Both the position numbers and the translations under genes were made by a program. A stretch of DNA of 64,000 nucleotides from Eubacteriales bacterium. Its GTDB lineage: Bacteria; Bacillota; Clostridia; Oscillospirales; CAG-272. Positions 21,320 through 60,364 of the stretch are shown piece by piece. Position 1 is the stretch's first letter. Each line of letters starts with the position of its first letter. Location of the stretch: positions 594-64,593 of the forward strand of contig JAZREL010000076.1 in the NCBI GenBank assembly GCA_045660785.1. The letters are read 5' to 3'. Under the pieces are notes generated by a model. The model saw only the letters and a program-made list of their open reading frames with translations, made no database searches and was not told where the DNA came from.

Positions 21320-21353
21320 TTTTGTCCTCCAAAAGATAATAATTTATAATTAT

Positions 21354-21382
21354 ATTATATATTCGCGCCCGCAGTTTGTCAA
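21354..21382 (-). promoter_or_regulatory. Consensus sigma-A promoter (TTGACA-17-TATAAT) for the surface lipoprotein gene
   Basis: Both hexamers are perfect on the minus strand with a 17-nt spacer, about 35 nt upstream of the ATG. Confidence 0.7.
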
Positions 21383-21424: not shown

Positions 21425-21653
21425 GAAATTTGTGCAAAATGCACAATACAAGCGGTGCTTGTAAATGAATTGCGCAAACGCATGAATTGAAGCAGAGCTT
21501 CATGAATTGTCACAAAGCGACATGAATTGCGCCTTTGGTGCATAAATTGAGGCAATACCGCATTGAAGCATCATATGGCGTAGCCAATTCATAATGTGTT
21601 AACGTCAATTTATTAAAATACAGTTTTCAATTTATGTGATTTATCACAATTCA
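21425..21653. repeat. Micro-hairpin array, family 1, locus A (about 11 units; orientation flips at ~21570)
   Basis: CATGAATTG or CATAAATTG recurs at 21481, 21501, 21521 and 21541, an exact 20-nt period. CAATTCAT or CAATTTAT (the reverse complement) recurs at 21585, 21606, 21628 and 21647. The spacers are short palindromes closed by TG...CA. Confidence 0.85.
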
Positions 21654-21654
21654 G

Positions 21655-21686
21655 TAAAAAAGAGCCCACCCCGTGAGCTCTTTTTA
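21655..21686. terminator. Terminator after ruvB (bidirectional shape)
   Basis: agagc-cac/gtg-gctct hairpin flanked by A6 and T5 runs. Confidence 0.65.
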
Positions 21687-21690
21687 CTAT

Positions 21691-22740
21691 TTATCCCTCA
21701 ATTTTCATTTGAGTTGCGCCGCCTTGAAAGGGAAGGCCAAGGTGGTCGTAAGCCAAGCGCGTTACACATCTGCCCTTAGGGGTGCGGCTAAGGAAGCCGA
21801 TTTGCATAAGATACGGCTCGTAAACGTCCTCAATTGTGATTGCTTCCTCGCCGATTGTTGCCGCCAAGGTTTCAAGTCCGACAGGGCCGCCGCCGTAAAA
21901 TTTGATAATGGTTTCAAGAATTTTTCTGTCAATGTTGTCAAGTCCAAGGTCGTCAATTTCAAGTGCCGAAAGTGCCATTTTTGCAATTTCAAGCGTAATT
22001 TTGCCGTCGCCCTTTACCTGCGCGTAGTCGCGTACACGCTTAAGGAGACGGTTTGCAATACGAGGGGTTCCGCGTGAGCGTGAGGCAATTTCCTTTGCGC
22101 CCTCGCTGTCAATTCCAACCTCTAAAAGAGAAGCACTGCGCGTAATAATGGTTGCAAGCTCGTCCGCGTTATAAAGCTCCAAGCGCAAAAGCACGCCAAA
22201 GCGGTCGCGAAGCGGAGTGGTGAGCTGTCCTGCACGTGTCGTTGCACCCACTAAGGTGAAGCGAGGAAGCGGCACACGTACGCTTCTTGCCGCAGGACCC
22301 TTGCCTATAATAATATCAAGCACGTAGTCCTCCATTGCAGGGTAAAGAATTTCCTCAATAGAGCGTGAAAGACGGTGAATTTCGTCGATAAATAAAACGT
22401 CCCCGGGGGCAAGATTGGTTAAAATCGCCGCCAAATCACCCGGCTTTTCAATTGCAGGGCCCGACGTTACTCTGAAATTAACGCCCATTTCGTTTGCAAT
22501 AATGCCCGAAAGCGTTGTCTTACCAAGACCGGGAGGGCCGTAGAGAAGCACGTGGTCAAGCGCGTCGCCTCTGCCCTTAGCCGCGTCAATATAAACCTTA
22601 AGCATTTCCTTGACCTTTTCCTGACCGATGTAGTCCTCAAATGCCTTTGGGCGCAAGCTGACCTCAACCTCGGTGTCCTCGCCCGTCATTTCGGTTGAAA
22701 CTATTCGGTTTTCAAAGTCAAATTCTGTTTCCTCAATCAT
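21691..22740 (-). CDS. ruvB: Holliday junction branch migration helicase RuvB
   Basis: 349 aa. GPPGLGKTT Walker A, DEIHR Walker B, and RuvB-specific C-terminal domains. Confidence 0.97.
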
Positions 22741-22754
22741 TGCTTACTCCCTCC

Positions 22755-23363
22755 TTATCTCATCAGCTTGGCAAGTGCCAGCGGAATAATTTTTGAAACG
22801 TCCAATTTCGGGTCAATGCCTCCAAGCGCCCTTTGTGCATCGCTTCTTGAATAGCCAAGCACCACAAGTGCCTCAAGCGCCTCGGAAAGGTTAGAGCCCT
22901 TTGTTACCGCTACGCTCGGTGCGCCGACTGATACGTCACTCTCACCGCCAAACGGAAGCTTAACAATCTTGTCCTTAAGCTCTAAAACAACACGCGCCGC
23001 GGTCTTTGGTCCAATGCCTGATGCCTTTGCGATAGCTTTTGTGTCCTCGCTTGAAATAGCCATAGACAAGCGGTCGGGGGTTAAAAGAGAGAGAATAGCC
23101 ATTGCCGCCTTAGGGCCAACGCCCGAAACGGTGATAAGAAGCTTGAATGCGCTAAGCTCCTCGCTCGTCTTAAAGCCAAAGAGGTCAACGCCGTCCTCAC
23201 TTACCTTTAGGTAAGTTAAAAGCTTCATTTTTTGTCCGATGTGAGATACAACCGCGCTATACGTGTTGTCACTGACTATAAGCTTATAGCCAACGCCCAT
23301 ACAGTCGATAACGCAAAAGCCGCTCTCGCAGTATTCAAGTGTTCCGTTAACGTGATAAATCAT
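22755..23363 (-). CDS. ruvA: Holliday junction DNA-binding protein RuvA
   Basis: 202 aa. Tandem HhH motifs (VSGVGPKAA, ASGIGPKTA) and a C-terminal domain III. Confidence 0.95.
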   Translation of the reverse strand: MIYHVNGTLEYCESGFCVIDCMGVGYKLIVSDNTYSAVVSHIGQKMKLLTYLKVSEDGVDLFGFKTSEELSAFKLLITVSGVGPKAAMAILSLLTPDRLSMAISSEDTKAIAKASGIGPKTAARVVLELKDKIVKLPFGGESDVSVGAPSVAVTKGSNLSEALEALVVLGYSRSDAQRALGGIDPKLDVSKIIPLALAKLMR

Positions 23364-25792
23364 ATAATTTCGCCCTTTCTGTTCCTTTTACGGCGTAAAT
23401 TTACTATAAATTCTAAAACAACAAGCAGTGAAAAAATCAAACATCCAAGCCCTGTTATAGAAAGCCCGATATACCATTGCATCGGTACGTATTTCATTTC
23501 AATCGTATGCTCGCCCGCTTCAATATCGAAGGCAACGGTTGCATCAAGACATTTGTAGGTTTGGGTGCGCTCCCCGTCCACGTAAACCTGCCACATTTTA
23601 TCATAGGGCAGAGTGGTAAAGACGATTTGTCCCTCCTTAGCTGTCAACGTGCCGCTGATTTTTGTGTCGGTGACGCTTGAATTTTTAAGCGCGCCCTCCA
23701 TAAAGAGAGGATAAATTCTTTCAAGCTTTTTCTCCGTTACGTTTGAGCCAAGGTCCTGATCAAGCATAAGGTCGGCAATATAGAGTGTAAAATTCTGCGC
23801 ACTCATTTGGCGCGTCATATCCGCCTCTAAAATTTTTTCGCTCACCGCATACATAATGGGAAGAGCATACTTGTTTTCATATACGGTATATTTTCCGTCA
23901 AGCACCGCTATTTCCTTGTATATATTGCTTTTTACTATTTCGTCGGGCTTGTCGTTTATAAGCTCGTCGGAAATAACGTATTTAATTCCCAAAAGGGAAT
24001 CGGCAAGCTCGTTTGAAAACCTATATAGCGCGCTTTGGTCCTGCGTTTTGTAGCCAAGCTTTTTAAGAAGGTCCTTCGCGCCCTTATTGTAGGTAGAGGT
24101 AAACTCGGAAACTCCGTTTATGTTAAGCACGAGGTTGTCGTTTGACTTTCTTGAGAAAAGACGCTCGGCTCTGAAAAAGCCGTCGATTTCCCTTTCTTCT
24201 AAAAACTCGGAAATTACGTCTTGTGAGTTCTTGAAGCTGTCGTAATTTGCTTTTGTGGAAAGCCCCGCGTCGTCAAACTGTCCAACCCATGAAAGGCAGG
24301 AGCCGACAAGCGCCTCGGTGCAAACGAATGCACAAAGAATAATCGACAAAGCACGTGTTTTTGATTTTTTGCTTTTGAGTAGGTATAAAATAATTAAGTA
24401 AATTCCAAGGAGCAAGGCGGTAAGCCAAACGGCGGTTAAGCCGATATTATATTCAGTTGCCTTATCTCCGTCGTATCTTGTTAGGTCCGCGGTTTTTTGT
24501 GCGACAAACAAAATTCCCATAAGCACACCGGACACTATGGCAAAATACTTAAATTTAACCTCGCTTATTCTTTCGTAAGCGCGGTACGCCATAATAAGAA
24601 TAATGAACGAGAAAATAAAGCTGTATCTGTAATTTAACCAAACGGGTACGCTAAAGCCGTGCCAAGCAAGATTGAACGTATTAACCGTGAAGCTTGCCAA
24701 AAATACGGTCACAAGCACGCCGTAGCCAATCTTTTCACGAAGCTTGATTTTTTTTGACATAAAGAAAAGAGGAAGCAAAAGCAGTGTAAGAGTGCCTGCA
24801 TAAATATGCGGCTTGCCCTCGGGCCTAAACGTGTCAAACGTGCCGATAAACATCTTTGCAATTATATCAATAAAATCAATGTTGACAGTAAATGCAAGCT
24901 TTGTTGGGTCAATGCCGTCGCTCTTTCCAAAGCTAAGAGAGTAAACTGCGCAAAGAAGCACGCCTGCCGCCATTAAAAGCATAAGGCAGGTATATAAGAA
25001 AAATCTTAACGATGATTTAAGCAAATGAAGCTTAACTCCGTTTGGGTTTCTTTCGTCCCTTGAATGTGAGGCAAGGAAAAACACAAAATAGAGTGCGGCA
25101 AAAATGCAAAGCATATAGCCGATATAGTAGTTAGACCAAATCCCAACGGAGAGGGAAATAACAAAAAGCTTGAATTTTCCTTCTCTTATAAGCGCCCTTA
25201 TGCCAAGCGCAATCATAGGAAGCCAAATAAGCGCGTCCATCCACATAATGTTCGTTTGGTACGCGGTTGCATAAGCGCAAAATGCGTAAAGCACGGAAAA
25301 GGTGCTAAAGCCAATTGAGTTTACGGGTCTTGTTTTATAAAGAAAAATACAGAAAGAGAGGGAAGCAAGCGCGCTTTTAAGCACCATCATAACGCCGATT
25401 GCTTCAACAATCATTGTATCGGGGAAAAGCACCACGATAAAGGAAAGGGGTGAGGCGAGATAATAGGTGTAGTAGCCGAAGAATTCTCCGCCCAAGGAGC
25501 GCTCAAGAGTATAGAAAAAGGACTCCTTGCCCGTTAAAACGTCACGTAGCTGCTCGAAAAAATAAACGTACTGCGCGTTCATATCAAGTGCCAAATAGCT
25601 TGTCTTTCCAAAAAACATTCCCGTAAAAAGGAACGTAAGAAGCATAACTAAAATAGGCGTAAAGAACGCAAAGAGCATATATTTTTTCGTTAAAACCTTC
25701 GTTTTTAAAAAGCTTTCAAAAAAGCGAAGCAGCTTCTTTGGAAACGAGGTCTTATTTTCGATAATTGCAAGTTCGTTATTGCTCATTTTCAT
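23360..25792 (-). CDS. YfhO-family polytopic membrane protein (putative glycosyltransferase)
   Basis: 810 aa with about 13 TM segments followed by an extracytoplasmic C-terminal domain and a final TM. It overlaps ruvA by 4 nt and DUF951 by 17 nt. Confidence 0.8.
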   Translation of the reverse strand: MKMSNNELAIIENKTSFPKKLLRFFESFLKTKVLTKKYMLFAFFTPILVMLLTFLFTGMFFGKTSYLALDMNAQYVYFFEQLRDVLTGKESFFYTLERSLGGEFFGYYTYYLASPLSFIVVLFPDTMIVEAIGVMMVLKSALASLSFCIFLYKTRPVNSIGFSTFSVLYAFCAYATAYQTNIMWMDALIWLPMIALGIRALIREGKFKLFVISLSVGIWSNYYIGYMLCIFAALYFVFFLASHSRDERNPNGVKLHLLKSSLRFFLYTCLMLLMAAGVLLCAVYSLSFGKSDGIDPTKLAFTVNIDFIDIIAKMFIGTFDTFRPEGKPHIYAGTLTLLLLPLFFMSKKIKLREKIGYGVLVTVFLASFTVNTFNLAWHGFSVPVWLNYRYSFIFSFIILIMAYRAYERISEVKFKYFAIVSGVLMGILFVAQKTADLTRYDGDKATEYNIGLTAVWLTALLLGIYLIILYLLKSKKSKTRALSIILCAFVCTEALVGSCLSWVGQFDDAGLSTKANYDSFKNSQDVISEFLEEREIDGFFRAERLFSRKSNDNLVLNINGVSEFTSTYNKGAKDLLKKLGYKTQDQSALYRFSNELADSLLGIKYVISDELINDKPDEIVKSNIYKEIAVLDGKYTVYENKYALPIMYAVSEKILEADMTRQMSAQNFTLYIADLMLDQDLGSNVTEKKLERIYPLFMEGALKNSSVTDTKISGTLTAKEGQIVFTTLPYDKMWQVYVDGERTQTYKCLDATVAFDIEAGEHTIEMKYVPMQWYIGLSITGLGCLIFSLLVVLEFIVNLRRKRNRKGEII

Positions 25793-25982
25793 TACCTAAG
25801 TGAATTTTTTTAATCATTTTTTCAATTTTCAAGCGGTCAAGCGTTAGCGCCCTGCCGCATTCAAGACAGGAAATTTTTATATCGGCACCGACGCGCAAAA
25901 CCTTAAAAAGCTTGCCACCGCAGGGGTGCTGCTTCTTCATTTCGAGTATGTCGCCAACGTTTATTTGTGGAAAAGCACTCAT
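25776..25982 (-). CDS. DUF951 family protein
   Basis: 68 aa. VGDILEMKKQHPCGG...CLECGR is the typical DUF951 zinc-ribbon-like pattern. Confidence 0.8.
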   Translation of the reverse strand: MSAFPQINVGDILEMKKQHPCGGKLFKVLRVGADIKISCLECGRALTLDRLKIEKMIKKIHLGNENEQ

Positions 25983-26089
25983 GGAAAATTTCCTTTCTCG
26001 TTTAGTTAATCACAACCATTTTACCATATATAAAGTAAAATTTCAACATTAATTTATTTAATATTTTTCGCATTAATTTTATAATATAT

Positions 26090-26118
26090 TTGACATCGGG
26101 GAAAAAATGTGATAAAAT
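26090..26118 (+). promoter_or_regulatory. Sigma-A promoter (TTGACA-17-TAAAAT with extended -10 TG) for ruvC
   Basis: Hexamers and spacing were read directly from the sequence. Confidence 0.6.
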
Positions 26119-26163
26119 AATCTATAACGAATTTTTGAAAATCCTTGAAGGGGGAGTGCTTTT

Positions 26164-26661
26164 ATGGTCATTTTGGGGATAGACCCGGGCTTTGCCATTG
26201 TCGGTTGGGGTGTTTTGGAAAGCGTCAAGGGCAAATTCCGCGTGCTTGGCTACGGCTCCATTCAAACCAAGGCAGGCACACCAATTGAGGAGCGCCTTTC
26301 ACAGATTTTCGACGGTATGAACACAATAATCGATAAATATAAGCCCGATGCTATGGCAATTGAGGAGCTTTTTTGGAACACGAACCAAAAAACGGGTATC
26401 TGTGTTGCCGAGGCGCGCGGCACGATTTTAGTTGCGGCACATAAAAAGGGTCTTCAAATCGCGGAATATACACCGCTTCAGGTTAAGCAGTCTGTCGTTG
26501 GCTACGGCAGGGCGGAGAAAAAGCAGGTTATAACAATGGTTACAACGCTTCTTAACTTACCTAAGCCACCAAAGCCCGACGATACAGCCGATGCACTTGC
26601 ACTTGCAATTTGTCACGGCCACGCAAGCTCAAACGTACTTGGAAAATACTTTAAAATGTGA
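26164..26661 (+). CDS. ruvC: Crossover junction endodeoxyribonuclease RuvC
   Basis: 165 aa. The ILGIDPG catalytic Asp, the EE..W motif and a C-terminal DDTADALALAICH motif are present. Confidence 0.95.
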   Translation: MVILGIDPGFAIVGWGVLESVKGKFRVLGYGSIQTKAGTPIEERLSQIFDGMNTIIDKYKPDAMAIEELFWNTNQKTGICVAEARGTILVAAHKKGLQIAEYTPLQVKQSVVGYGRAEKKQVITMVTTLLNLPKPPKPDDTADALALAICHGHASSNVLGKYFKM

Positions 26662-26668
26662 GGAAATT

Positions 26669-27547
26669 ATGTATTTAGCTAATGATTGGAAGGATTACGA
26701 GCTTCTTGACACCTCAGACGGTGAGCGTCTTGAGCGTTGGGGAAAATATATTCTTATTCGTCCCGACCCACAGGTAATTTGGAAGGGAAAAAGGGAGCAT
26801 AAGCTTTGGAGCCGTGCTGACGGAATTTACCGCCGTTCAAAGAGTGGCGGTGGCGCGTGGATTAAAAACGACGTGCCCGAAAAATGGACAATCACCTACA
26901 AGGATATGGTCTTTAACCTAAAGCCGATGGGCTTTAAGCACACAGGTCTTTTCCCTGAGCAGGCGGCAAACTGGGATTGGTTTAGCGAGCTTATTAAGGA
27001 AAGACGTGCCCAAGGTAAAGAGGTTAAGGTTCTAAACCTTTTTGCATACACGGGTGGCGCGACGGTTGCCGCAGCTAAAGCAGGCGCTTCGGTTGTGCAC
27101 GTTGACGCTTCAAAGGGTATGGTTCAATGCGCGAAGGAGAATATGGCATCAAGCGGACTTGAAAACGCACCTGTGCGCTACATAGTTGACGATTGCCGCA
27201 AGTTTGTTGAGCGCGAAATCCGCCGTGGAAACAAATACGACGGAATTATTATGGACCCGCCGTCCTACGGCAGGGGCCCGGGTGGCGAGGTTTGGAAGCT
27301 TGAGGATGCAGTTTGCGACTTTGTAAATCTTTGCGAAAAGCTCATCTCAGATGACCCACTTTTTATGCTTATAAATTCATATACAACAGGTCTTAGCGCG
27401 CTTACAATGGGCTACGTATTAAACGTAGAGGTTGTTAAAAAGCACGGCGGCAGGGCAGAAACTGCCGAGGTTGCCTTGCCTGTTACCGAAACCAAGGGCT
27501 TTTTGCCCTGCGGCGCGAGTGCGCGTTGGGTTGCGGACAAGAAATAA
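26669..27547 (+). CDS. Class I SAM-dependent methyltransferase (RlmI C-terminal-domain-like)
   Basis: 292 aa. LNLFAYTGGATVAAA SAM-binding motif and a DPPSYGRG motif. I set the start at ATG 26669 behind a GAGGA RBS; the tracked 26591 start overlaps ruvC. Confidence 0.85.
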   Translation: MYLANDWKDYELLDTSDGERLERWGKYILIRPDPQVIWKGKREHKLWSRADGIYRRSKSGGGAWIKNDVPEKWTITYKDMVFNLKPMGFKHTGLFPEQAANWDWFSELIKERRAQGKEVKVLNLFAYTGGATVAAAKAGASVVHVDASKGMVQCAKENMASSGLENAPVRYIVDDCRKFVEREIRRGNKYDGIIMDPPSYGRGPGGEVWKLEDAVCDFVNLCEKLISDDPLFMLINSYTTGLSALTMGYVLNVEVVKKHGGRAETAEVALPVTETKGFLPCGASARWVADKK

Positions 27548-27689
27548 GCACCTTGCGGTGCGTGAATTGATGCGACGCATCATAAATTGCAACTCTGTTG
27601 CATGAATTGTTTCTGTGAAACATGAATTGTGCTCCGCACATAAATTGCAACCTTGTTGCATGAATTGTCCTTTGGACATTTTATAATTG
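27548..27689 (+). repeat. Micro-hairpin array, family 1, locus B (7 units, all the same orientation)
   Basis: (C/G)(A/G)T(G/A)AATTG recurs at 27561, 27581, 27601, 27621, 27639 and 27659. Every spacer is a 3-4-bp palindrome with a 3-nt loop, closed by TG...CA. Confidence 0.9.
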
Positions 27690-27700
27690 TAGGAGAAAAA

Positions 27701-28564
27701 ATGAATCCATTAATTAAACTTGAAAACGTTTCCTATAAATATCCCGATAATGACAACGTTGAAAATCGCTTTGCGCTTGAAAACCTTTCGCTTGAAATAA
27801 ACGAGGGAGAGTTTGTTGCGCTTCTCGGTCACAACGGCTCGGGAAAATCAACTGCGGCAAAGCTTATAAATATGATTCTTTCGCCCGACAGTGGCAATAT
27901 TTATATTGACGGAAGGTTGATTTCCGACAAGAAAATGAAGGAAAGCGATATTTACGAAATAAGAAAAAACGTTGGTATGGTTTTCCAAAATCCCGACAAC
28001 CAAATTGTTGCAACCGTTGTCGAGGAGGACGTTGCCTTCGGCCCTGAAAACCTTGGGCTTGACCCCGAGGAAATAAGAAAAAGAGTAGATGAGGCGCTTG
28101 AAATCGTCGGTATGCAATCATATGCGCGCCACGCGCCGCACCGTCTTTCGGGCGGACAAAAGCAAAGGGTTGCAATTGCTGGAATTATCGCAATGAAGCC
28201 GCGTTGCATCATCTTTGACGAATCAACCGCTATGCTTGACCCTCTTGGCAGAAAAGAGGTAATGAACACAATTTTAAAGCTCAATAAGGAAGAAAAAATC
28301 ACCGTTGTCTTAATTACTCACTATATGAACGAGGCAATAGAGGCAGACAGAGTTGTGGTTATGCGAAATGGCGAAAAGTACCTTGAGGGCACACCGTCCG
28401 AGGTCTTTTCAAAGCCCGAAAAGCTCACACGTGCGGGGCTTGAGGTGCCGCAGTCAATTGAGCTTATAAATGCTCTGAATAAGGAGCTTGGCACAAAAAT
28501 CCCCTTAGGAGTGTACGATTTAGACACCTGTGCCGACCTTGTTAGCAGGGAACTTTTGAAATAA
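27701..28564 (+). CDS. ecfA: Energy-coupling factor transporter ATPase (EcfA1)
   Basis: GHNGSGKST Walker A, LSGGQKQR signature and IFDEST Walker B. I set the start at ATG 27701 behind an AGGAG RBS. Confidence 0.93.
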   Translation: MNPLIKLENVSYKYPDNDNVENRFALENLSLEINEGEFVALLGHNGSGKSTAAKLINMILSPDSGNIYIDGRLISDKKMKESDIYEIRKNVGMVFQNPDNQIVATVVEEDVAFGPENLGLDPEEIRKRVDEALEIVGMQSYARHAPHRLSGGQKQRVAIAGIIAMKPRCIIFDESTAMLDPLGRKEVMNTILKLNKEEKITVVLITHYMNEAIEADRVVVMRNGEKYLEGTPSEVFSKPEKLTRAGLEVPQSIELINALNKELGTKIPLGVYDLDTCADLVSRELLK

Positions 28565-28609
28565 ATTTAGAGAACCGACCGAATTTGAAAATCCGAGAAA
28601 GGAGTTAAA

Positions 28610-29494
28610 ATGTCGATAATAGAGCTAAAGGACGTGTCCTTCGTTTACGGCAAGAAAACGCCGTACGAAATAAACGCACTTGATAACGTTTCCCTTGAAT
28701 TTGAAGAGAATTTAATAACGGGCTTAATAGGCCACACGGGCTCGGGTAAATCAACCCTTGTTCAAATGCTAAACGGCATTTTAAGGCCGACTCACGGCAC
28801 TGTTATTGTTGACGGCGAGGATATTTGGAAAAAGCCAAAGAAAATCGCAAGCGTCAGATTTAAGGTCGGTATGGTTATGCAATACCCCGAGTATCAGCTT
28901 TTTGCCGACACGGTAAAGGACGATATTGCATACGGGCCGAAAAATATGAAGCTTCCACCCGAGGAAATCGAAGCAAGAGTTTTGGAAAGCGCCGCCTTCT
29001 GCGGAATTGACGCTCAAACCTTGAAAAAATCCCCGTTTGATTTGTCGGGCGGACAAAAGCGCCGTGTTGCACTTGCAGGCGTTATGGCAATGAAGCCGAA
29101 GATTTTGGTGCTTGATGAGCCAGCGGCAGGGCTTGACCCACGCGGCAGACGCGAAATTCTCGGTGGAATTAAAGAATTTCAAGCCAAAAGCGGCACAACC
29201 GTAATCATAGTCAGCCACAGTATGGAGGATATGGCTATGTATTGCGACAGAGTTGTCGTTATGGCAAACGGCAAAATGCTGAAAAGCGGCACTTGCGCCG
29301 AGGTCTTTTCCGAAAGCGCACTTCTTACCGAAAACGGTCTTGACGTGCCCGAGATTACAAGCATTGTTGCAAAGCTTTCTGAGCGCGGAGTTGATATTCC
29401 AAAGAGCATTTATACGGTTGACGGCGCAATTAATGCAATAGTTGACCGATATAAATCATCCTCCCAAGAAAAGGAGGCAGAAAATGGCATTTGA
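28610..29494 (+). CDS. ecfA: Energy-coupling factor transporter ATPase (EcfA2)
   Basis: GHTGSGKST, LSGGQKRR and LDEPAAGLD motifs. It is second in the ecfA-ecfA-ecfT order. Confidence 0.93.
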   Translation: MSIIELKDVSFVYGKKTPYEINALDNVSLEFEENLITGLIGHTGSGKSTLVQMLNGILRPTHGTVIVDGEDIWKKPKKIASVRFKVGMVMQYPEYQLFADTVKDDIAYGPKNMKLPPEEIEARVLESAAFCGIDAQTLKKSPFDLSGGQKRRVALAGVMAMKPKILVLDEPAAGLDPRGRREILGGIKEFQAKSGTTVIIVSHSMEDMAMYCDRVVVMANGKMLKSGTCAEVFSESALLTENGLDVPEITSIVAKLSERGVDIPKSIYTVDGAINAIVDRYKSSSQEKEAENGI

Positions 29495-30311
29495 CGTTTC
29501 ACTCGGACAGTATTACGAGGGAAAATCGCTTATCCACAAGCTTGACCCAAGAACCAAGCTTTTCCTTGTAATTACCTTTATGGTTGCTACTTTTGTAGCA
29601 AAAAGCATTTATTCCTTTGCGTTTTTATTCGTTGTCGTGCTTGCTTCGATAATAATAAGCCGTGTGCCGCTCGGCACTATTTTAAAGGGGCTTAAGCCGC
29701 TTATTCTTATCGTTATTTTCACCGCAATTTTAAATATTTTTTGGACAAAGGACGGCAACCTTTTATTCAGCTGGAAATTTATCGAAATTTACGACAAGGG
29801 CTTGCTAAACGCCGCGCTTTTGGCGCTTCGCATCGTTATGCTTCTTGCCGAAACAACGCTGCTCCTTTCATATACCACAACGCCTATTGAGCTGACTGAC
29901 GGTATTGAAACAGCACTCTCACCGCTTAAAAAAATCAAGCTTCCCGTGCACGAGTTTGCAATGCTGATGACTATTGCGCTTCGCTTTATTCCAACGCTAA
30001 CGGACGAAACGGGAAAGATTATGAACGCGCAAAAATCAAGAGGCGCGGACTTTTCAAGCGGTGGCTTAATCAAGCGTGCAAAGGCACTTATCCCAATTAT
30101 CATTCCGCTTTTCGTTTCCTCATTCAGACGCGCGGACGAGCTTGCAACGGCAATGGAATGCCGTCTTTACCGCGGCGGCGAGGGAAGGACGAGAATGAAA
30201 AAGCTAAAATTTAAGGTAAAGGACGTTTTCGGCTTGCTTTTTGCACTTGTGCTTTTTGCGGGTGTAATTCTTATAAACATCTTCCTTAGCAAGTACGGCC
30301 CTACGATTTAA
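29484..30311 (+). CDS. ecfT: Energy-coupling factor transporter transmembrane protein EcfT
   Basis: Polytopic, with the conserved ARG-type coupling helices (KSRGADF). The start ATG 29484 lies behind an AAGGAGG RBS and overlaps ecfA2 by 11 nt. Confidence 0.9.
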   Translation: MAFDVSLGQYYEGKSLIHKLDPRTKLFLVITFMVATFVAKSIYSFAFLFVVVLASIIISRVPLGTILKGLKPLILIVIFTAILNIFWTKDGNLLFSWKFIEIYDKGLLNAALLALRIVMLLAETTLLLSYTTTPIELTDGIETALSPLKKIKLPVHEFAMLMTIALRFIPTLTDETGKIMNAQKSRGADFSSGGLIKRAKALIPIIIPLFVSSFRRADELATAMECRLYRGGEGRTRMKKLKFKVKDVFGLLFALVLFAGVILINIFLSKYGPTI

Positions 30312-30312
30312 G

Positions 30313-31077
30313 ATGAAAAAGGTTTTACTAACAGTCGCATATAACGGCCACGCCTACTGCGGCTATCAGCTCCAACCAAATAAGCCAACGGTTGCGCTTG
30401 AAATGAACAGGGCGGCTACGTCATCATTCGGCTTTGAATGTAAGGTGACGGGGTGCAGCCGCACGGACAGCGGTGTGCACGCGCTCGGCTTTGCATTAAC
30501 GGTTGAGCCAAAAAACGACGGCGACGAAATCACCGTTCCGCTTGACAAAATTCCTATCGCGATGAACATAAAGCTCCCAAACGATATATCCGTTTTGAGC
30601 GCAAGGGAAGTGCCGCTTGACTTTCACCCAAGGTACTCCGCGCACAAAAAGCAATACGTTTATAAAATTCACGCAAGCAAGATAAGAAATCCGTTTTACG
30701 AGAATTTGGCTTTTGAATACGGCAGGGAAATAAGCGACGAAGAGCTTGAAAAAATGAACCAAGCGGCGAAGCAGTTTATCGGCACGCATCATTTTGACGC
30801 ATTTATGGCGGTTGGCTCAAAGGTTGAGGACACGGAGCGCACGGTTTTTGAAAGCTACGTAAAAAGAAACGGAGAGCTCGTTGAATTTACCGTATGCGCC
30901 GACGGATTTTTATACAATATGGTCAGAATAATGGTTGGCACGCTACTTTCGGTGCGCGAGGGACGAATTGACCCTTTGGCAATTTCTGACATAATTAAGT
31001 CAAAAAAGCGCGAAAATGCGGGCTTTACCGCAAAACCCGAGGGACTTTACCTCGAAAAAATATTTTATAACAGTTGA
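30313..31077 (+). CDS. truA: tRNA pseudouridine(38-40) synthase TruA
   Basis: 254 aa with the GCSRTDSGVHA catalytic Asp motif. This is the usual position, downstream of the ecf module. Confidence 0.94.
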   Translation: MKKVLLTVAYNGHAYCGYQLQPNKPTVALEMNRAATSSFGFECKVTGCSRTDSGVHALGFALTVEPKNDGDEITVPLDKIPIAMNIKLPNDISVLSAREVPLDFHPRYSAHKKQYVYKIHASKIRNPFYENLAFEYGREISDEELEKMNQAAKQFIGTHHFDAFMAVGSKVEDTERTVFESYVKRNGELVEFTVCADGFLYNMVRIMVGTLLSVREGRIDPLAISDIIKSKKRENAGFTAKPEGLYLEKIFYNS

Positions 31078-31102
31078 CAAATTTTAAAAAACAGTTTATA
31101 CT
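31074..31102 (+). promoter_or_regulatory. Sigma-A promoter (TTGACA-17-TATACT)
   Basis: The -35 overlaps the truA stop codon, and the spacer is 17 nt. Confidence 0.55.
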
Positions 31103-31147
31103 ATAAAAGTAACTAATCCTTGCGTATATTTTATAAAGGAGGCAAAA

Positions 31148-31930
31148 ATGGATTCTACACAAATTATCGGCTTGATATTTGACATCGTTTTTCTCGGACT
31201 TATCGTATTTTTGATTGTACGAAACTGTATTCGCGGCTTTCTTGATTCGCTCGTTACGCTTGTGAAAATCGTGGTTGCACCCGTTTTTGCCGTTGTTTTT
31301 AACCTTCCACTTGCAAGATTTATTGCAAAAATTTTCTTCAACGGAATTTCGACAAGTTGGGTGAACAAGCTTCTTCTCACCACCGAAACAACAACCGAGT
31401 TGGGTCAAATTCTATACGACGTTGACTCTATATTCGAGGGCATTCCCGACAAGATTGTCCGCTTCGTTTTGCGTGCGGGCGAGGAATGGGAAAACAAGGA
31501 AATGATAGACAAGTTCTTTATCGGTGACGGCACAGTTGGACCTCAGCTTGCAACGTCGGACGAGCTTGGGCTTATCTCCGAGGTTATCGGCTCCCGTATC
31601 GCGCTCGGCATTTCGATTGTTTTATCGTTCATTCTTATATTCGTTTTCGTTGAGGTGTTCATTCTCATTCTCAGCAAGCTTCTCAACAAGCTTATAGAGA
31701 AGGCAACCGTTGCTAAGGTCTTTAACGTTATCTTCGGCGGCGTTATCGGTGCTATTCTTGGCTTGCTTATCACTTGGGTGATTTGCTGCGTTATCGGCAA
31801 CCTCTTTGAGTTCGGTCAGCACTATTATCCCGAATTCTTCCTTGATTCCTATTGGAATAAAACGATAATAGTTAAATTCTTTATTGAGCACGACTTGCTC
31901 GATTTAATAAGTAAAATAGCGATACACTAA
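31148..31930 (+). CDS. CvpA-family membrane protein
   Basis: 260 aa. The N-terminal pattern (IDIVFLGLIVFLIVRNCIRGF) and 4 TM segments fit the family. Confidence 0.7.
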   Translation: MDSTQIIGLIFDIVFLGLIVFLIVRNCIRGFLDSLVTLVKIVVAPVFAVVFNLPLARFIAKIFFNGISTSWVNKLLLTTETTTELGQILYDVDSIFEGIPDKIVRFVLRAGEEWENKEMIDKFFIGDGTVGPQLATSDELGLISEVIGSRIALGISIVLSFILIFVFVEVFILILSKLLNKLIEKATVAKVFNVIFGGVIGAILGLLITWVICCVIGNLFEFGQHYYPEFFLDSYWNKTIIVKFFIEHDLLDLISKIAIH

Positions 31931-31996
31931 AAAGCTGAAGGACTGTAAATCATTAAGTGCAGTCCTTCTAATTTATTAATAATTTAAGGAGAAAAA

Positions 31997-32737
31997 ATGA
32001 GCGTAGGACTTGTAATTGACCTTTGCCTTCTTATAGTGGCAGCATATATTATCATAAAGTTCACCGTTAAGGGCTTTGTGCAAAGCATTTTAGATGCCTG
32101 CAAGCTCATTCTTTCCGTTGTTATTGCATTTATTGTAAGAGTGCCCGTTGCTAAATTCTTCTGTTCACTTTTTATGGACAGAATTATGATAAGCGCACTT
32201 GAAAAATCGCTTAACGCGTACATCGAAAGCGATACCGCAAAAATTGCAATCGACATCACCGCACTTGCAGAAAACACCCCCGAGTTTTTTGAAAAGCTAC
32301 TCACACGCTTCGACCTTGATTACGCTAAATTTACTGCCGACCTTGAGGTGCTTATTTCAAAGAAAAGCCCCGAGGTTGTAGTGCCGCTTGCCGAAAACGT
32401 CGGCGGTGCTTGCGCGTTTCTTATCTCGGTTGCAATAGCTCTCGTTGCCGTTTTCGTTATCGCCTTTGCCGCGCTTTCTTTAATTGCCAAGCTCCTTTCC
32501 AAAATTACGGAGTTTGACGGGGTGAAAAGTGCAAACAAATGGCTCGGCGCGTTAATTGGAGTTGTACTTTCGGTTATAATAATGTGGGGAGTGACACAAG
32601 GGCTCTTGGCACTTACTGCGTTTGTAGGACCGCTTTCAGGCGGAAAAATAGAAGAGATAATAAACGGCTCAATGGTCGTTGGAATATTTGAAAAATTCAG
32701 CATTATTGAAATAATTAAGAATAAAATTTACGGATAA
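31997..32737 (+). CDS. CvpA-family membrane protein (tandem paralogue)
   Basis: 246 aa. It has the same N-terminal pattern (IDLCLLIVAAYIIIKFTVKGF) and the same topology. Confidence 0.7.
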   Translation: MSVGLVIDLCLLIVAAYIIIKFTVKGFVQSILDACKLILSVVIAFIVRVPVAKFFCSLFMDRIMISALEKSLNAYIESDTAKIAIDITALAENTPEFFEKLLTRFDLDYAKFTADLEVLISKKSPEVVVPLAENVGGACAFLISVAIALVAVFVIAFAALSLIAKLLSKITEFDGVKSANKWLGALIGVVLSVIIMWGVTQGLLALTAFVGPLSGGKIEEIINGSMVVGIFEKFSIIEIIKNKIYG

Positions 32738-32754
32738 TAAGCAGGAAAAATACT

Positions 32755-35025
32755 ATGGAAATGTGTACCAGATGCAAAAAAAGACCGGCAACGGTTTATA
32801 TTATGAAGCTCGAAAACAACGTGCAAAAGCAAGAGGGACTTTGCCTCGTTTGCGCTAAGGAGCTCGGCATTAAGCCCGTCAACGATATGATGACAAAGAT
32901 GGGCATTACCGAGGAGGAGCTTGAAAATATGGAAAAGATGTTCGCTGATATGCTTCCCGTTGCAAATGACGGCGAGGACGGCGACGAGGACTCTCCCACA
33001 ATTGATTTTTCCAAAATAATGAAAAATATGGGAATGGGCGCAGGTGAACAAAAGGACGCAAAGGATAAGGACAAGGGCAAGAAAAAGGACAACCGCAAGC
33101 ACCTTTCCACCTTCTGCACAAACCTCAATCAGCGCGCACTAAACGGCAAGCTTGACAGAATTGTAGGTAGATCACGTGAGCTTGAAAGAGTAATTCAAAT
33201 TCTAAGCCGCCGCCAAAAGAACAACCCCTGCTTAATAGGTGAGCCGGGCGTTGGTAAAACCGCAATTGCCGAGGCACTCGCACAAAGAATTGTCGAGGGC
33301 AACGTGCCACATAAGCTTAAAAAATGCGAAATATACTTGGTTGACTTAACCGCACTTGTTGCAGGCACTCAGTTCAGAGGTCAGTTTGAGGCAAGAATTA
33401 ACGGACTTCTTAAGGAGGTTAAGGAGGCAGGCAATATTATTCTCGTTATCGACGAAATCCACAATATTGTCGGCACAGGCAACTCCGCGGGCAGTATGAA
33501 CGCCGCAAATATTTTAAAGCCCGCACTTTCACGCGGCGAAATTCAGGTTATCGGCGCAACAACCTTGAAGGAATACCGCAAATATATTGAGAAGGATGCC
33601 GCACTTGAGCGCCGCTTCCAGCCCGTTAAGGTTGAGGAGCCGTGTATTGACGAGTGTATCGAAATGATAAAGGGCATCAGGCACTACTACGAAATTTATC
33701 ACGGCGTTAAAATCTCCGATGAAATGGCAAAAAGCGCAGTTGTAATGAGTGAGCGCTATATCACCGACAGATTTTTGCCCGACAAGGCAATCGACTTAAT
33801 CGACGAGGCGTGCTCGCACATTGTTTTGCACGCGCCACACATAAACGAGCGCCACAGAGTTATCGAGCGCTTGGCAGAGGTTGACACAAAAACCGAGGCG
33901 CTGAATGCAAAAATTGCAGAGGGCGGCAAGGAGCCAAGCGAAAACGAATATAAGCAGCTTGCCGAGCTTAAGGCGGAGCGTTCAATGCTTCTTATAGACA
34001 AGGAAAAGCTTGACAAGGAATGTGAAAATACCGTTATGACCAAGCAGGACCTTGCAGGCGTTATCGAAATTTGGACGGGCATCCCCGCAAGCAATATTTC
34101 CGAGGTTGAATTTGAAATGCTTGCTGCGCTTGAGGACAAGATAAAATCTCGTATTGTCGGTCAGGACGAGGCGGTAAAATCGCTCTCTGCGGCAATCAGA
34201 AGAAACCGTGCAGGCGTCAGCATTAAAAAACGTCCCGCATCCTTCATTTTCGCAGGTCCGACGGGCGTTGGTAAAACCGAGCTTGTTAAAACGCTCGCAA
34301 ATGAGCTTTTCAATACTCCCGATTCGCTTATTCGCCTTGATATGACAGAGTTTATGGAGAAGCACTCCGTGTCTAAAATCATCGGCTCTCCTCCCGGCTA
34401 CGTTGGCTACGACGAGGCAGGACAGCTCACCGAAAAGATAAGACGCTCACCGTACTCCGTTGTGCTCTTCGACGAAATAGAGAAGGCGCATCCCGACGTA
34501 TTAAACATTCTTCTTCAAATTCTTGACGAGGGTAAAATTTCCGACTCTCAGGGAAGAACGATAAATTTTGAAAACACGGTTATTATAATGACGACTAACG
34601 CGGGCGCAACCTTAACCTCATCCCAGGCGGGCTTCGGCTCAAGCTCACACGAGGTTGCCAAGGATAAAACAGAGAAGGCGCTTTCCTCGTTCCTTCGTCC
34701 CGAGTTTATCAACCGTATCGCCGAAATTATCACCTTCCGCTCACTTGAAGAAAGCGACTTTGTAAAGATTGCCAAGATTATGCTTAGCGATATGCAAACA
34801 GCACTTGGTGAAAGAAGCATCCGCTTCACCTTTACTGACGAGGTGTGCGAGTTTATTGCAAAGGAATCCTTCAGCAAAAAATTCGGTGCAAGAAATATGC
34901 GCAGATATATTCAAACTCAAATCGAGGATAAGCTTGCCCACGCAATTATCTTTGAGATAAAGGGCAACATCATCGGCGCAAGCGTTGACGTAAAGGACGG
35001 GGCACTCGTTGTTGACTGCATTTAG
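32755..35025 (+). CDS. Clp/Hsp100 two-AAA+ ATPase with an N-terminal CxxC...CxxC zinc ribbon (ClpE-like)
   Basis: 756 aa. CTRCKK...CLVCAKELG at the N-terminus, two Walker A boxes ([18 protein letters not shown]), and no Clp_N repeat domain. Confidence 0.88.
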
Positions 35026-35120
35026 CACGTCAACACGTGAATGAATTGCAACCATAAGGTTTCATGAAGCAGCACTATGTAATGAAATTACAATTCATGG
35101 TTTGCAAGCATCAATTCATT
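35026..35120. repeat. Micro-hairpin array, family 1, locus C (shorter, partly degenerate, orientation flips)
   Basis: AATGAATTG at 35040, degenerate CATGAAGC at 35063 and AATGAAATT at 35081, then CAATTCATG at 35091 and CAATTCATT at 35112. The cacgt-caac-acgtg and TGcaacc-ataa-ggtttCA hairpins are visible. Confidence 0.7.
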
Positions 35121-35128
35121 AAAAATTT

Positions 35129-35170
35129 GAGCAAGGACAGGGGAATTTAACCCTTTTCCTTGCTCTTTTT
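35129..35170 (+). terminator. Intrinsic terminator after the ClpE-like gene and array C
   Basis: A long gagcaagga...tccttgctc hairpin plus a T5 run. Confidence 0.8.
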
Positions 35171-35244
35171 ACTTACGACAACGGGCGGGCTTCTCGTTTT
35201 GCCTCAAATTTTTAAAATTTTTTTACTTTAGTTTGATAAAGTAC

Positions 35245-60276: not shown

Positions 60277-60364
60277 AAATTCCTCTAAAAAAATGATATA
60301 TTTCGATTTTATCATAAATAGTTCATTTTTGCAATACAATAAGCAAAATTGCGAAAAATTTCTA

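Follow-up and report, generated by a model that had tools for sequence, protein, structure and literature searches.

The three hairpin-linker arrays of the 64-kb stretch of DNA analysed here (the window) are read, with about even confidence, as orphan members of the Gut-1 superfamily: copies of a dispersed, non-coding DNA repeat that forms a discrete element and resembles MITEs and REPINs. By sequence comparison the element is a sister of the little-studied Rfam Gut-1 motif and so not wholly new. The sequence-only reading had described three arrays organised by the 9-mer CATRAATTG, and the counts bore this out: exact matches numbered 12 in 64 kb against 2.09 expected, none of 100 shuffles reached 12, and 11 of the 12 fell inside the three named array regions (ATRAATTG, 22 matches vs 9.3 expected). 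A scan of the window found no further array of linker-plus-hairpin type, in agreement with the claim that its other intergenic regions lack them, and the contexts assigned to the three (promoter-upstream, intercistronic and 3' UTR) were all correct by flanking genes, promoter and terminators. The role of the 9-mer had to be revised. It is enriched and lies in the arrays, but the single-stranded linker is really TGAAT; the CA and TG on its two sides form the base pairs that close each hairpin. The repeat unit is TG-stem-loop-stem-CA followed by TGAAT, with stem sequences that vary. The window spacers between linkers are predicted to form hairpins of 4-7 bp that differ in sequence, none being common to the three arrays.

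Table 1. Positions of the arrays and flanking signals in the window.
Feature	Position	Strand	Basis
Promoter of Flg_new surface-protein gene, TTGACA-17-TATAAT	21354..21382	-	sigma-70, 12/12 matches
Two leader hairpins before array 1, ttgtgcaaaatgcacaa and tacaagcggtgcttgta	21430..21463	+	sequence and predicted fold
Array 1, forward half	21464..21565	+	sequence, motif search, predicted fold, comparison with family consensus
Centre of array 1 composite, between forward and reverse halves	21566..21584	.	sequence
Array 1, reverse half	21585..21655	-	motif search; convergent as in family (61 vs 4)
Terminator-like hairpin just downstream of RuvB	21657..21685	.	13-nt arms, 92% complementary
Array 2, solo forward array	27548..27689	+	sequence, motif search, predicted fold, Rfam Gut-1 match
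ecfA1 ribosome-binding site (taggag) and ATG (27701), intact right after array 2	27690..27703	+	sequence
Array 3, small degenerate composite	35026..35120	+	sequence, motif search, predicted fold
Intrinsic-terminator-like hairpin and T run downstream of ClpA/C-like gene	35129..35171	+	arms 35129-35143, 35151-35165

Array 1 lies between the RuvB terminator and the Flg_new promoter, upstream of the -35 box; this promoter is conserved in the relatives L334 and L335, both of which are without array 1. A hairpin ahead of the first linker is found in about one third of family members. The forward half has five linkers (AATGAATTG at 21464, CATGAATTG at 21481, 21501 and 21521, and CATAAATTG at 21541) separated by 4-6 bp hairpins, and ends in a truncated linker, CATTG (21561-21565); the A preceding the outermost linker and the terminal CATTR match the family consensus. 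The reverse half carries four linkers in reverse orientation (21585, 21606, 21628, 21647) and reads ACTGAATTG-h-CATAAATTG-h-AATAAATTG-h-TATGAATTG-gctacgcc-CATATG on the minus strand. Its AT-rich hairpins are partly decayed, and it directly abuts the A-tract of the RuvB terminator, whose hairpin is flanked by an A-run and a T-run and so is possibly bidirectional. Array 2, located between a SAM-methyltransferase gene and ecfA1, opens with the hairpin gcaccttgcggtgc and contains six linkers (GTGAATTG at 27562 (27561/2), then 27581, 27601, 27621, 27639 and 27659), hairpins of 5-7 bp including the TG/CA closing pairs with 3-nt loops, and a degenerate terminus, CATTTTATAATTG. Its segments starting at 27581 and 27639 are identical at 28 of the first 30 positions, suggesting that the array may carry a partial internal duplication. 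The ribosome-binding site and start of ecfA1 are the same in relatives. Array 3 consists of the hairpin cacgtcaacacgtg, AATGAATTG (35040), caacc-ataa-ggttt and CATGAAG, followed by the reverse linkers CAATTCATG (35091) and CAATTCATT (35112), and is bounded by inverted linkers; it is placed between the stop codon of the ClpA/C-like gene and the terminator, abutting the A/T tract of the latter. Arrays 2 and 3 are probably co-transcribed with their host operons, adding stable hairpins to the mRNA.

Family-wide, a canonical copy has about 80 nt and the order L1-h1-L2-h2-L3-h3-L4-h4-CATTR, where L stands for (C)ATGAATTG and h for a Watson-Crick hairpin of 4-7 bp with free sequence. Stems of at least 4 bp were present in 316 of 418 spacers compared with about 9% of shuffled spacers, and the idea of a conserved word beside hairpins conserved in shape and not in sequence was upheld. 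Exactly four linkers were counted in 118 of 143 arrays, so that arrays 1 and 2 of the window, with five to six, are atypical. The fixed architecture suggests a selected structure, more than junk. A fourth hairpin was found in 57 of 73 cases, usually followed by the truncated linker CATTR. The nucleotide before the linker is A at 65% of outer linkers and C at 98% of internal ones, and the linkers recur at intervals of 14 to 25 nt, 20 nt being the most frequent single interval and 16 nt a second peak. Paired arrays were convergent in 61 cases and divergent in 4, giving composites bounded by AATGAATTG…CAATTCATT, and in duplicated copies the identity begins at ATGAATTG and ends at CAATTCATT. The earlier proposal of a new, tandemly amplifying element holds as to a dispersed family, but not fully as to novelty, given the kinship with Gut-1, and open-ended tandem growth does not fit four linkers with defined ends.

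The stems are almost entirely Watson-Crick paired (1555 of 1585 pairs, 98%; 11 G·T and 12 A·C). Their loops show a strong strand asymmetry, being of the type C-GNA-G or C-GNNA-G on the CAATTCAT strand: 128 of 252 loops on this strand were G..A, and G..A triloops numbered 81 on it against 3 on the other. With the closing pair the commonest triloops were CGCAG (32), CGAAG (27) and CGTAG (12), while the commonest tetraloop was the non-GNRA GTCA. These loops match a stable type of DNA, the mini-hairpin with the consensus d(GCGNAGC)/d(GCGNNAGC) (PMC13037366, PMC3201870), and the commonest units of the CAATTCAT strand (GCGAAGC, GCGCAGC, GCGTAGC, GCGTCAGC, GCGTAAGC) are exact consensus. The mini-hairpin is, however, a physico-chemical motif and no genetic element, and the window units mostly have less canonical A/G-N-A loops.

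The distribution of the arrays, which the sequence-only reading had proposed to examine, proved restricted: searches gave 110 of them, spread over 84 loci that came almost entirely from Clostridia MAGs of gut or rumen, and none in 730 kb from 80 loci of more distant Clostridia. Several Clostridia families share an identical linker, and different linker families occur side by side in one genome or locus (L042, L337). In the syntenic relatives L334, L335 and L336 (EcfA1 identity 82-85%) no array was found in 3 x 20.8 kb, and all three window sites are empty. The site of array 2 is a gap of 2-16 nt in all three, and overall the gaps at the insertion sites are 2-16, about 100 and about 135 nt in relatives vs 153, 371 and 291 nt in the window. 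The window arrays thus appear, from this sequence comparison, to have been inserted recently in the lineage of the window. Copies that are almost identical and sharply delimited lie at different genomic places, and the expected gain or loss of units between strains was seen in a sister linker family, where a clean indel of 44 nt, exactly two units, separates the close strains L337 and L338. Arrays are intergenic, and all kinds of intergenic context and both orientations are represented; by crude gene calls, solo arrays were sense in 8 cases, antisense in 11 (four from one locus), between convergent genes in 8 and between divergent genes in 3, and their orientation relative to genes looks random. 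The intergenic position, lack of orientation preference, inverted pairs, empty sites and two-unit strain difference support the suggested likeness to REP/BIME elements. In the DNA examined, no HUH, Y1 or RAYT gene of the kind proposed as a partner was linked to arrays, nor was a nuclease, transposase or recombinase, and the array copies showed neither a target-site duplication nor a target consensus.

The sole linked gene encodes a PF05635 four-helix bundle; no other family recurs in the 572 ORFs of 83 array-bearing loci. The 84th locus is the window, whose 64 kb contain no such gene. The PF05635 gene was present in 8 loci and directly adjoined arrays in 7. The linked product has 115-120 aa and no known nuclease motif, and to our knowledge no catalytic activity is known for PF05635. 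One protein, P0041, is found in identical form in at least six genomic contexts, and the array-containing module upstream of it is the same in every one. One clade always goes with ATGAATTG composites and a second always with TATATCATCA/GATGATATAC composites. In these modules a consensus promoter (12/12 matches in L118, 11/12 in L108) immediately precedes the composite, and in the orthologous leader composite 9 of 37 pairs have changed in a compensatory way between species, so that at least this copy is an RNA leader, one that may act at the RNA level. PF05635 ORFs are known to ride in a selfish element with inverted repeats, the 23S rRNA IVS (PMC4990558), and the proteins resemble Avd (PMC10053308).

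On the reading of a dispersed DNA repeat, the element would propagate as DNA, the form in which it would also be recognised. Once single-stranded, the CAATTCAT strand would adopt a string of very stable mini-hairpins, and the linker of 5-8 nt would be a family-specific word read by a cognate protein. Two half-elements usually face each other to give a composite. More speculatively, the reader could be the small PF05635 (Avd-like, '23S rRNA IVS') protein, a candidate because no other gene is linked to arrays and each of its two clades has a different linker; such a pairing, if true, would parallel that of RAYT genes and their REPINs. The window copies are probably passengers.

A possible but doubtful alternative is that the arrays are a structured RNA module (a Gut-1-type ncRNA or UTR element), the dispersed copies being functional RNA modules. 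Their transcripts would fold into a row of hairpins, and in composites the AUGAAUUG and CAAUUCAU linkers would pair to give a long interrupted duplex, which could bind an Avd-like pentameric protein or, like the 23S rRNA IVS, act as a determinant of stability or RNase III cleavage. Gut-1, which shows covariation, was judged to be a likely RNA (PMC2864571), and IVS elements with PF05635 ORFs are cut by RNase III (PMC4990558). The promoters and compensatory changes of the leader composites, the position of arrays 2 and 3 inside transcription units and the architecture fixed at four linkers also agree with RNA, as does the convergent rule, by which a composite yields the same RNA in either direction of transcription. 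However, solo arrays are as often sense as antisense, array 1 has a terminator on one side and a promoter on the other, and the host genes in relatives manage without arrays. G·U makes up 0.7% of pairs, no commoner than A·C, unlike curated structured RNAs, and the loop signature is on the strand opposite the annotated Gut-1 RNA and includes the non-GNRA GNNA loops typical of DNA mini-hairpins. The RNA platform offered by the sequence-only reading is therefore disfavoured for solo arrays, given their random-looking orientation and stems without G·U excess; composites read the same either way, so that orientation independence is no argument against RNA there, and they may form such a platform.

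We consider it improbable that the arrays are cis-acting, non-selfish chromosomal signals in single-stranded DNA for a conserved host factor in replication or repair, such as primosome or single-strand-initiation-like hairpin clusters, or sites of a nucleoid protein that binds hairpins or cruciforms. Hairpins that are of the DNA mini-hairpin type on one strand, a type first noted in phage single-strand origins, the Watson-Crick-only pairing and the linker shared by several Clostridia families would suit such signals, but not their absence from the same sites in close relatives (none in 62 kb) and from the more distant Clostridia, the several linker families in one genome or locus, the near-identical copies in different contexts and the lack of bias with respect to gene direction, a proxy for replication direction. 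Least credible by far are phased double-stranded sites, one 9-mer per about 20 bp, for a transcription factor or nucleoid-type protein, or chance AT-rich clusters, or a local segmental duplication, all effectively refuted by the counts, spacer stems, distribution and variable period. Phasing would accord with 20 nt as the commonest period and with array 1 upstream of a promoter, but the spread of 14-25 nt with its second peak makes it unlikely, the spacers are perfect palindromes with asymmetric loop composition, and of the three window arrays only array 1 has a promoter nearby. The 9-mer is no mere frequent AT-rich word, as its counts exclude chance clusters and its spacers form stems, and a local duplication is contradicted by the lack of common hairpin sequences and by the family's presence in 84 loci of other genomes.

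Among known systems, IS200/IS605 subterminal hairpins and integron attC sites also combine a folded single-stranded shape with a short conserved word in a strand-specific manner (the recognition here being inferred), but no TnpA(Y1), TnpB or integron integrase lies near the arrays, and the family lacks R/L boxes and has a periodic four-hairpin architecture. The 23S rRNA IVS with a PF05635/S23p ORF (e.g. Coxiella, PMC4990558) shares the linked protein family, an ORF between inverted repeat blocks that possibly pair in RNA (L111, L032), and the status of an element regarded as selfish. In contrast to it, the present elements lie outside rRNA, their repeats are hairpin arrays, and most copies, including all three in the window, are without an ORF. 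MITEs are likewise small (80-230 nt), non-coding and multi-copy, with sharp ends from inverted terminal sequences (here AATGAATTG…CAATTCATT) and insertion polymorphism between relatives; in the window family, however, neither a target-site duplication nor a parent IS with a DDE transposase turned up, half-elements often stand alone and the interior is a periodic hairpin array. REP/BIME/REPIN elements with their RAYT (Y1 HUH) partners have in common with it short extragenic palindromes beside a conserved single-stranded word, many copies, inverted pairs and a family-specific sequence paired with a family-specific gene flanked by or adjoining repeats. They differ in their GTAG or GGAG word, in a hairpin sequence conserved between units, in one hairpin instead of four per half-element and in a linked RAYT/IS200-like gene, whose place is taken here by the four-helix-bundle gene. 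Closest is the Gut-1 RNA motif (RF01706; Weinberg et al. 2010, PMC2864571), described from metagenomes only, as a candidate stand-alone sRNA. It has the same row of short free-sequence hairpins with a conserved purine-UGA-W-AU word between them, four linkers, T/U-N-C loops on the purine-UGA-W-AU strand, a forward then a reverse block in its seed sequences, and a source in gut Clostridia-type metagenomes. Array 2 and one L040 array match its model end to end, the window match (27539-27613) scoring 28.4 bits vs a gathering threshold of 50. Unlike Gut-1, with its linker GUGAAAU or GUGAUAU (GUGAWAU), the window family has the linker AUGAAUUG, is dispersed and insertion-polymorphic without orientation preference, and bears a DNA-type hairpin signature on the opposite strand.

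The sequence-only reading had described three clusters of a 9-mer next to hairpins in three contexts: promoter-upstream, intercistronic and 3' UTR. Motif counts and reading of the sequence placed all three where it had put them, and in these contexts. The window holds 12 copies of CATRAATTG where 2.1 are expected, a count reached in none of 100 shuffles, and 11 of the 12 lie inside the three arrays; a relaxed 8-mer occurs 22 times (9.3 expected). The clusters were thus real, but the 9-mer could not be kept whole as a word beside the hairpins, since its terminal CA and TG pair with each other and belong to the hairpin stem. Each unit thus runs TG-stem-loop-stem-CA, and TGAAT or TAAAT links it to the following one. 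Rows of local hairpins were seen in MFE folds of the arrays, and a generic search of the window for perfect-hairpin runs picked out arrays 1 and 2, with no comparable run and no array of another linker family elsewhere in it. All three arrays in the 64 kb are intergenic. Array 1 has the RuvB terminator on one side and a 12/12 promoter on the other, array 2 is flanked by a methyltransferase gene and ecfA1, and array 3 follows the stop codon of a ClpA/C-like gene and precedes the terminator of that gene. Arrays 1 and 2 are atypical in linker number (5-6), and the segments of array 2 starting at 27581 and 27639 agree at 28 of the first 30 positions, which suggests a partial internal duplication.

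Hairpin-linker arrays of the window, with positions in the window
Array	Position	Strand	Structure
Array 1	21464-21549 (forward linkers); 21585-21654 (reverse linkers)		composite; five forward and four reverse linkers
Array 2	27562-27667	+	solo; six linkers, degenerate end
Array 3	35040-35120		small decayed composite with AATGAATTG and CAATTCATT as its bounds

A 10/12 promoter-like site at 21322-21350 (+) points into array 1, and a terminator at 21657-21685, possibly bidirectional, lies at the far end of the array. Array 1 could therefore be a transcription unit of its own of ~330 nt; the promoter-like site may be a chance match, and it overlaps the AT-rich 5' region of Flg_new. The 5' part of this surface-protein gene (Listeria-Bacteroides repeat), beside array 1, also holds overlapping 12/18/24/30-nt tandem repeats at 21153-21238. 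Another tandem repeat of the window, at 59850-60101 (48/96 nt, 91% matches, 4.4 copies), is coding and encodes GGNENQGGSGNEDDDQ repeats in a lipoprotein-like minus-strand ORF of 360 aa (59257-60339).

One genome per species was scanned for three spaced CAATTYAT words, which gave at least 119 stretches, and after simple perfect tandem repeats from unrelated phyla were removed at least 110 arrays in at least 84 loci were left. Among the matches listed, the sources were almost all gut and rumen MAGs with the labels Acutalibacteraceae, Oscillospiraceae, Ruminococcaceae, Christensenellales/-aceae, 'Eubacteriales' or 'Clostridia'. Of 418 spacers, 316 can form a stem of 4 bp or more, compared with ~9% of shuffled spacers. 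As a negative control, 80 metagenome loci around EcfA1 homologues of 53-60% identity (730 kb) were searched, with no array found. The distribution across related Clostridia, which the sequence-only reading had proposed to examine, is one of arrays in gut and rumen groups and none around distant EcfA1 homologues. Spread over many loci, hairpin spacers and the empty 730 kb together rule out both explanations by which that reading could have failed, a frequent AT-rich word lacking palindromes and a local segmental duplication. By a rough estimate of one per 20-60 kb, the arrays would be among the commoner non-coding features of the genomes that carry them, which are those of poorly studied gut and rumen Clostridia. 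Viral contigs gave 120 matching stretches, most of them simple AT-rich tandem repeats and many from giant-virus MAGs; carriage by phages was dropped, as true arrays were present in only about 7 loci. In two Bacteroidota MAG loci (L012 816-930 and L085) a perfect 19-nt tandem repeat, ATGAATTGCCTCGGGCTTC, adjoins an IS200-like ORF; the 8-mer within it is due to chance or convergence, and the repeat does not belong to the hairpin arrays of the linker family.

Open-ended tandem amplification, as had been proposed, was not borne out. Exactly four linkers were counted in 118 of 143 arrays, with three in 9, five in 11 and six in 5, and 57 of 73 four-linker arrays have a fourth hairpin after the last linker, usually followed by a cut-down linker CATT(A/G). 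The base before the linker is A in 65% of outermost linkers and C in 98% of internal ones. Elements end in AATGAATTG…CAATTCATT, the words at which copies begin and cease to be identical. Where one locus holds two copies (L091, L051, L080), near-identity starts at ATGAATTG, and in L091 and L051 it stops exactly at CAATTCATT, with unrelated flanks beyond. The fixed linker number and the sharp ends point to a discrete half-element of ~80 nt rather than an open-ended array. Of the at least 110 arrays 65 are paired, 61 convergently against 4 divergently, and usually two half-elements make up an inverted composite 180-230 nt long.

Syntenic relatives with EcfA1 identities of 85%, 84% and 82% (L334-L336) were recovered, with the same gene order from GerA to gdhA. 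All three array sites are empty in them, and no arrays were found in their 3 x 20.8 kb, whereas the promoter and terminator sequences flanking the sites are conserved. The methyltransferase-ecfA1 gap of array 2 measures 2-16 nt in the relatives (site at about 9985-10000) against the window's 153 nt (27548-27700), which contain six ATGAATTG linkers. The Flg_new-RuvB gap of array 1 measures ~100 against 371 nt, and the ClpC-proS gap of array 3 ~135 against 291 nt; in L336, which lacks Flg_new, 41 nt separate RuvB from the neighbouring GerA gene. A 92% relative carries ~170 nt of an unrelated hairpin-rich insert at the array 2 site (L332 1042-1214), and an 88% relative carries there 65 nt that resemble only the array's terminal CATTT..AATT..TAGGAG (L346 1273-1337). 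The site turns over quickly, and the spacer is a hot spot of turnover. The window lineage probably gained its three copies as passengers. Gain or loss of units in sister strains, which the sequence-only reading had wanted checked, was found in a third linker family, GATTACATAC, of the same hairpin-array design: two near-identical strains (L337 1700-1812, L338 1700-1770) are set apart by one clean indel of 44 nt, exactly two units long.

At gathering thresholds Rfam returned only a tRNA in the window, and no family matched an array in the window or in 20 loci. At permissive thresholds the only relevant match was Gut-1 (RF01706), which aligned to array 2 end to end (window 27539-27613, model positions 1-77) with 28.4 bits (threshold 50; E = 0.045 for the 14 kb searched). 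An array in locus L040 behaved like array 2, with 28.6 bits, also below the threshold. Gut-1 occurs in human-gut metagenomes and was described as probably a non-coding RNA, with nothing more said (PMC2864571). Its consensus has four GUGAAAU linkers with three hairpins between (Rfam RF01706), and its seed alignment includes members with GUGAUAU linkers (PMC2864571, Additional file 4) in which a reverse AAUAUCAC block comes after a forward one (PMC2864571), as in array 1. Set against the Gut-1 design of three to four short, variable hairpins with a conserved RUGAnAU linker between them, the architecture agrees in its four linkers, similar hairpin sizes and end-to-end alignment, but the linker is AUGAAUUG and not GUGAAAU or GUGAUAU. 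The window arrays are therefore treated as a sister linker variant within a Gut-1 superfamily, not as members of RF01706, and the claim of a wholly new element is given up. At least three linker families were present in the loci studied, besides the Gut-1 seed linkers. The analysis suggests that Gut-1, an orphan 'sRNA' motif of 2010, belongs as one linker variant to a wider superfamily of hairpin-array elements that are discrete and insertion-polymorphic and bear a DNA mini-hairpin signature.

The annotation of Gut-1 raises the possibility that the arrays, especially the composites, act at the RNA level. Functional RNA normally has many more G·U than A·C pairs on its own strand. Among 1585 stem pairs, 1555 were Watson-Crick, 11 G·T and 12 A·C, so that the strand test gave no asymmetry and no support for RNA. 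Solo arrays showed no orientation bias relative to flanking ORFs (8 sense and 11 antisense, four of these from one locus; 8 between convergent and 3 between divergent genes), the gene calls being crude. The loops do distinguish the strands. Of 252 loops read on the CAATTCAT strand, 128 have G as first and A as last base, in most cases with a closing C-G pair (commonest CGCAG, 32; CGAAG, 27; CGTCAG, 14; CGTAG, 12; CGTAAG, 10), and G..A triloops number 81 there against 3 on the other strand. GTCA, the commonest tetraloop, is not a GNRA loop. GCGNAGC and GCGNNAGC are the consensus of an extraordinarily stable DNA mini-hairpin (PMC13037366, PMC3201870), and the strand favoured here is the opposite of that annotated as Gut-1 RNA. 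Taken together with the position of array 1 between a terminator and a promoter, the orientation, wobble and loop data favour selection on single-stranded DNA of one strand, and these three indirect tests argue against solo arrays as strand-specific RNA.

The composites give the RNA reading more ground. By the convergent rule they read alike in both directions, and one conserved composite, the leader of PF05635 genes, lies right after consensus promoters (12/12 in L118, 11/12 in L108) and has compensatory changes at 9 of its 37 pairs in a comparison of 11 species. The promoters argue for transcription of these leader composites. On balance a role at the RNA level is rather unlikely, though it keeps a real share of the probability. 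In the leader composite (A1 alignment columns 39-48 with 127-136; e.g. L108 1952-2156, minus), the stretch TGAATTGCCT, made up of the first linker and the 5' arm of hairpin 1, has its complement in the centre, AGGCAATTCA; the predicted pairing would form a closing helix around three hairpins in a cloverleaf-like alternative fold, and being invariant it carries no covariation. Single-stranded DNA signals for host factors are a more improbable account, and phased duplex sites or chance, given the spacer stems and motif counts, a very improbable one. The reading of the arrays as a dispersed DNA element that resembles MITEs and REPINs and belongs to the Gut-1 superfamily has in our judgement about an even chance of being correct. 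Recognition of such an element would combine a word, the linker, with a shape, that of the mini-hairpins on the CAATTCAT strand.

A partner gene was sought by clustering array neighbours and then 572 ORFs from 83 array loci other than the window. The single recurrent family was PF05635 (TIGR02436, 'four helix bundle protein'; 115-120 aa, PDB relative 2RLD), present in 8 loci and directly adjoining arrays in 7; the window holds no PF05635 gene. This is a very large family with solved structures, related to the DGR accessory protein Avd, and the Avd-like protein is probably pentameric. We know of no function for it outside DGRs, and it gave no defence-system assignment. The PF05635 protein resembles Avd (PMC10053308). 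Two loci (L111, L032) have a forward array on one side of the gene and a reverse array on the other. In L108, L114 and L118 a promoter is followed by a composite, then by a ribosome-binding site and the PF05635 gene, and in L320-L330 and L337-L345 the gene likewise adjoins a composite. The first clade of these proteins has at least 6829 members, many on contigs <1 kb. A second clade, of at least 3731 members, shares 41% identity with the first and always has upstream a composite with another linker, TATATCATCA…GATGATATAC (L042, L337-L342, L343-L345). The half order of these composites is opposite to that of the ATGAATTG family, with the GNA-loop half first (L042 1815-2100, minus; L337 980-1200; L343 960-1200).

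One identical first-clade protein, P0041 (L320-L324, L329; gene ~2501-2854), was found downstream of six different genes with its upstream array module unchanged. The cargo downstream of its copies varies (DUF4379, AbiTii-like, DUF2513, DUF3791), and some copies agree in the right flank but differ in the left, a pattern suggestive of a larger mobile island or of recombination at the module. In L330 (2300-2960) one four-unit forward array is repeated on both sides of a reverse array plus PF05635 gene, an arrangement that recombination between arrays would be expected to leave. No candidate partner of the arrays other than PF05635 emerged, and we put it forward tentatively, with well under an even chance. 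If arrays and PF05635 genes do work together as a repeat-and-partner system, the long-unexplained '23S rRNA IVS protein / four helix bundle protein' family would gain a function, and the link makes a specific binding experiment possible. For annotation, the arrays break short-read assemblies, as the many PF05635 contigs <1 kb illustrate, put stable hairpins between cistrons and upstream of terminators, and could be mis-annotated as riboswitch-like or sRNA genes.

Several known systems were compared with the arrays. Type III toxin-antitoxin RNA repeats, promoter arrays or LytTR-type direct repeats, TRAP- or CsrA-like protein sponges and iterons or DnaA-box clusters were considered and dropped. 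So was a CRISPR mini-array: CRISPR has repeats of at least 23 nt, unique spacers of similar length and cas genes, whereas the conserved part here is 8-9 nt and the spacers are palindromes of 8-15 nt. Full-text literature gave only primer matches for the 8-mer and nothing relevant on tandem hairpins or REPINs in Clostridia. Like MITEs, the elements are small and non-coding, with terminal inverted repeats and sharp ends, but neither a target-site duplication nor a target consensus was visible in array flanks, and no related autonomous IS in the loci. The proposed kinship with REP/BIME elements held in part. The arrays are extragenic, present in many copies and found in inverted pairs, but the conserved imperfect palindrome of REPs, with its 5' tetranucleotide GTAG/GGAG, has no counterpart: the word is (C)ATGAATTG, and hairpin sequences vary from unit to unit. 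The IS200/IS605 tnpA or RAYT gene that had been suggested as a companion did not appear in the loci covered: tblastn with IS200, IS608 and RAYT sequences found no match in the window and, in L050, L075 and L077, matches 2.5-4.6 kb from arrays and not flanked by them, and clustering of ORFs from array-bearing loci showed no IS200/RAYT-like family and no linked transposase, so that no HUH/Y1/RAYT partner is linked to arrays in these loci. PF05635 ORFs are known to be carried by the 23S rRNA IVS, a selfish element with inverted repeats (PMC4990558); such an ORF inside inverted repeats is absent from the window and present in L111 and L032. The covariation of PF05635 clade and linker parallels that of RAYT genes and REPINs. 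By this analogy the arrays and PF05635 genes may form a new repeat-and-partner system in Firmicutes, REPIN-RAYT-like without an HUH enzyme, in which each Avd-like clade would recognise its own linker and four or five mini-hairpins, as single-stranded DNA or RNA, and drive or guard their spread; in this system, which we consider unlikely as a whole, the window arrays would be orphan copies.
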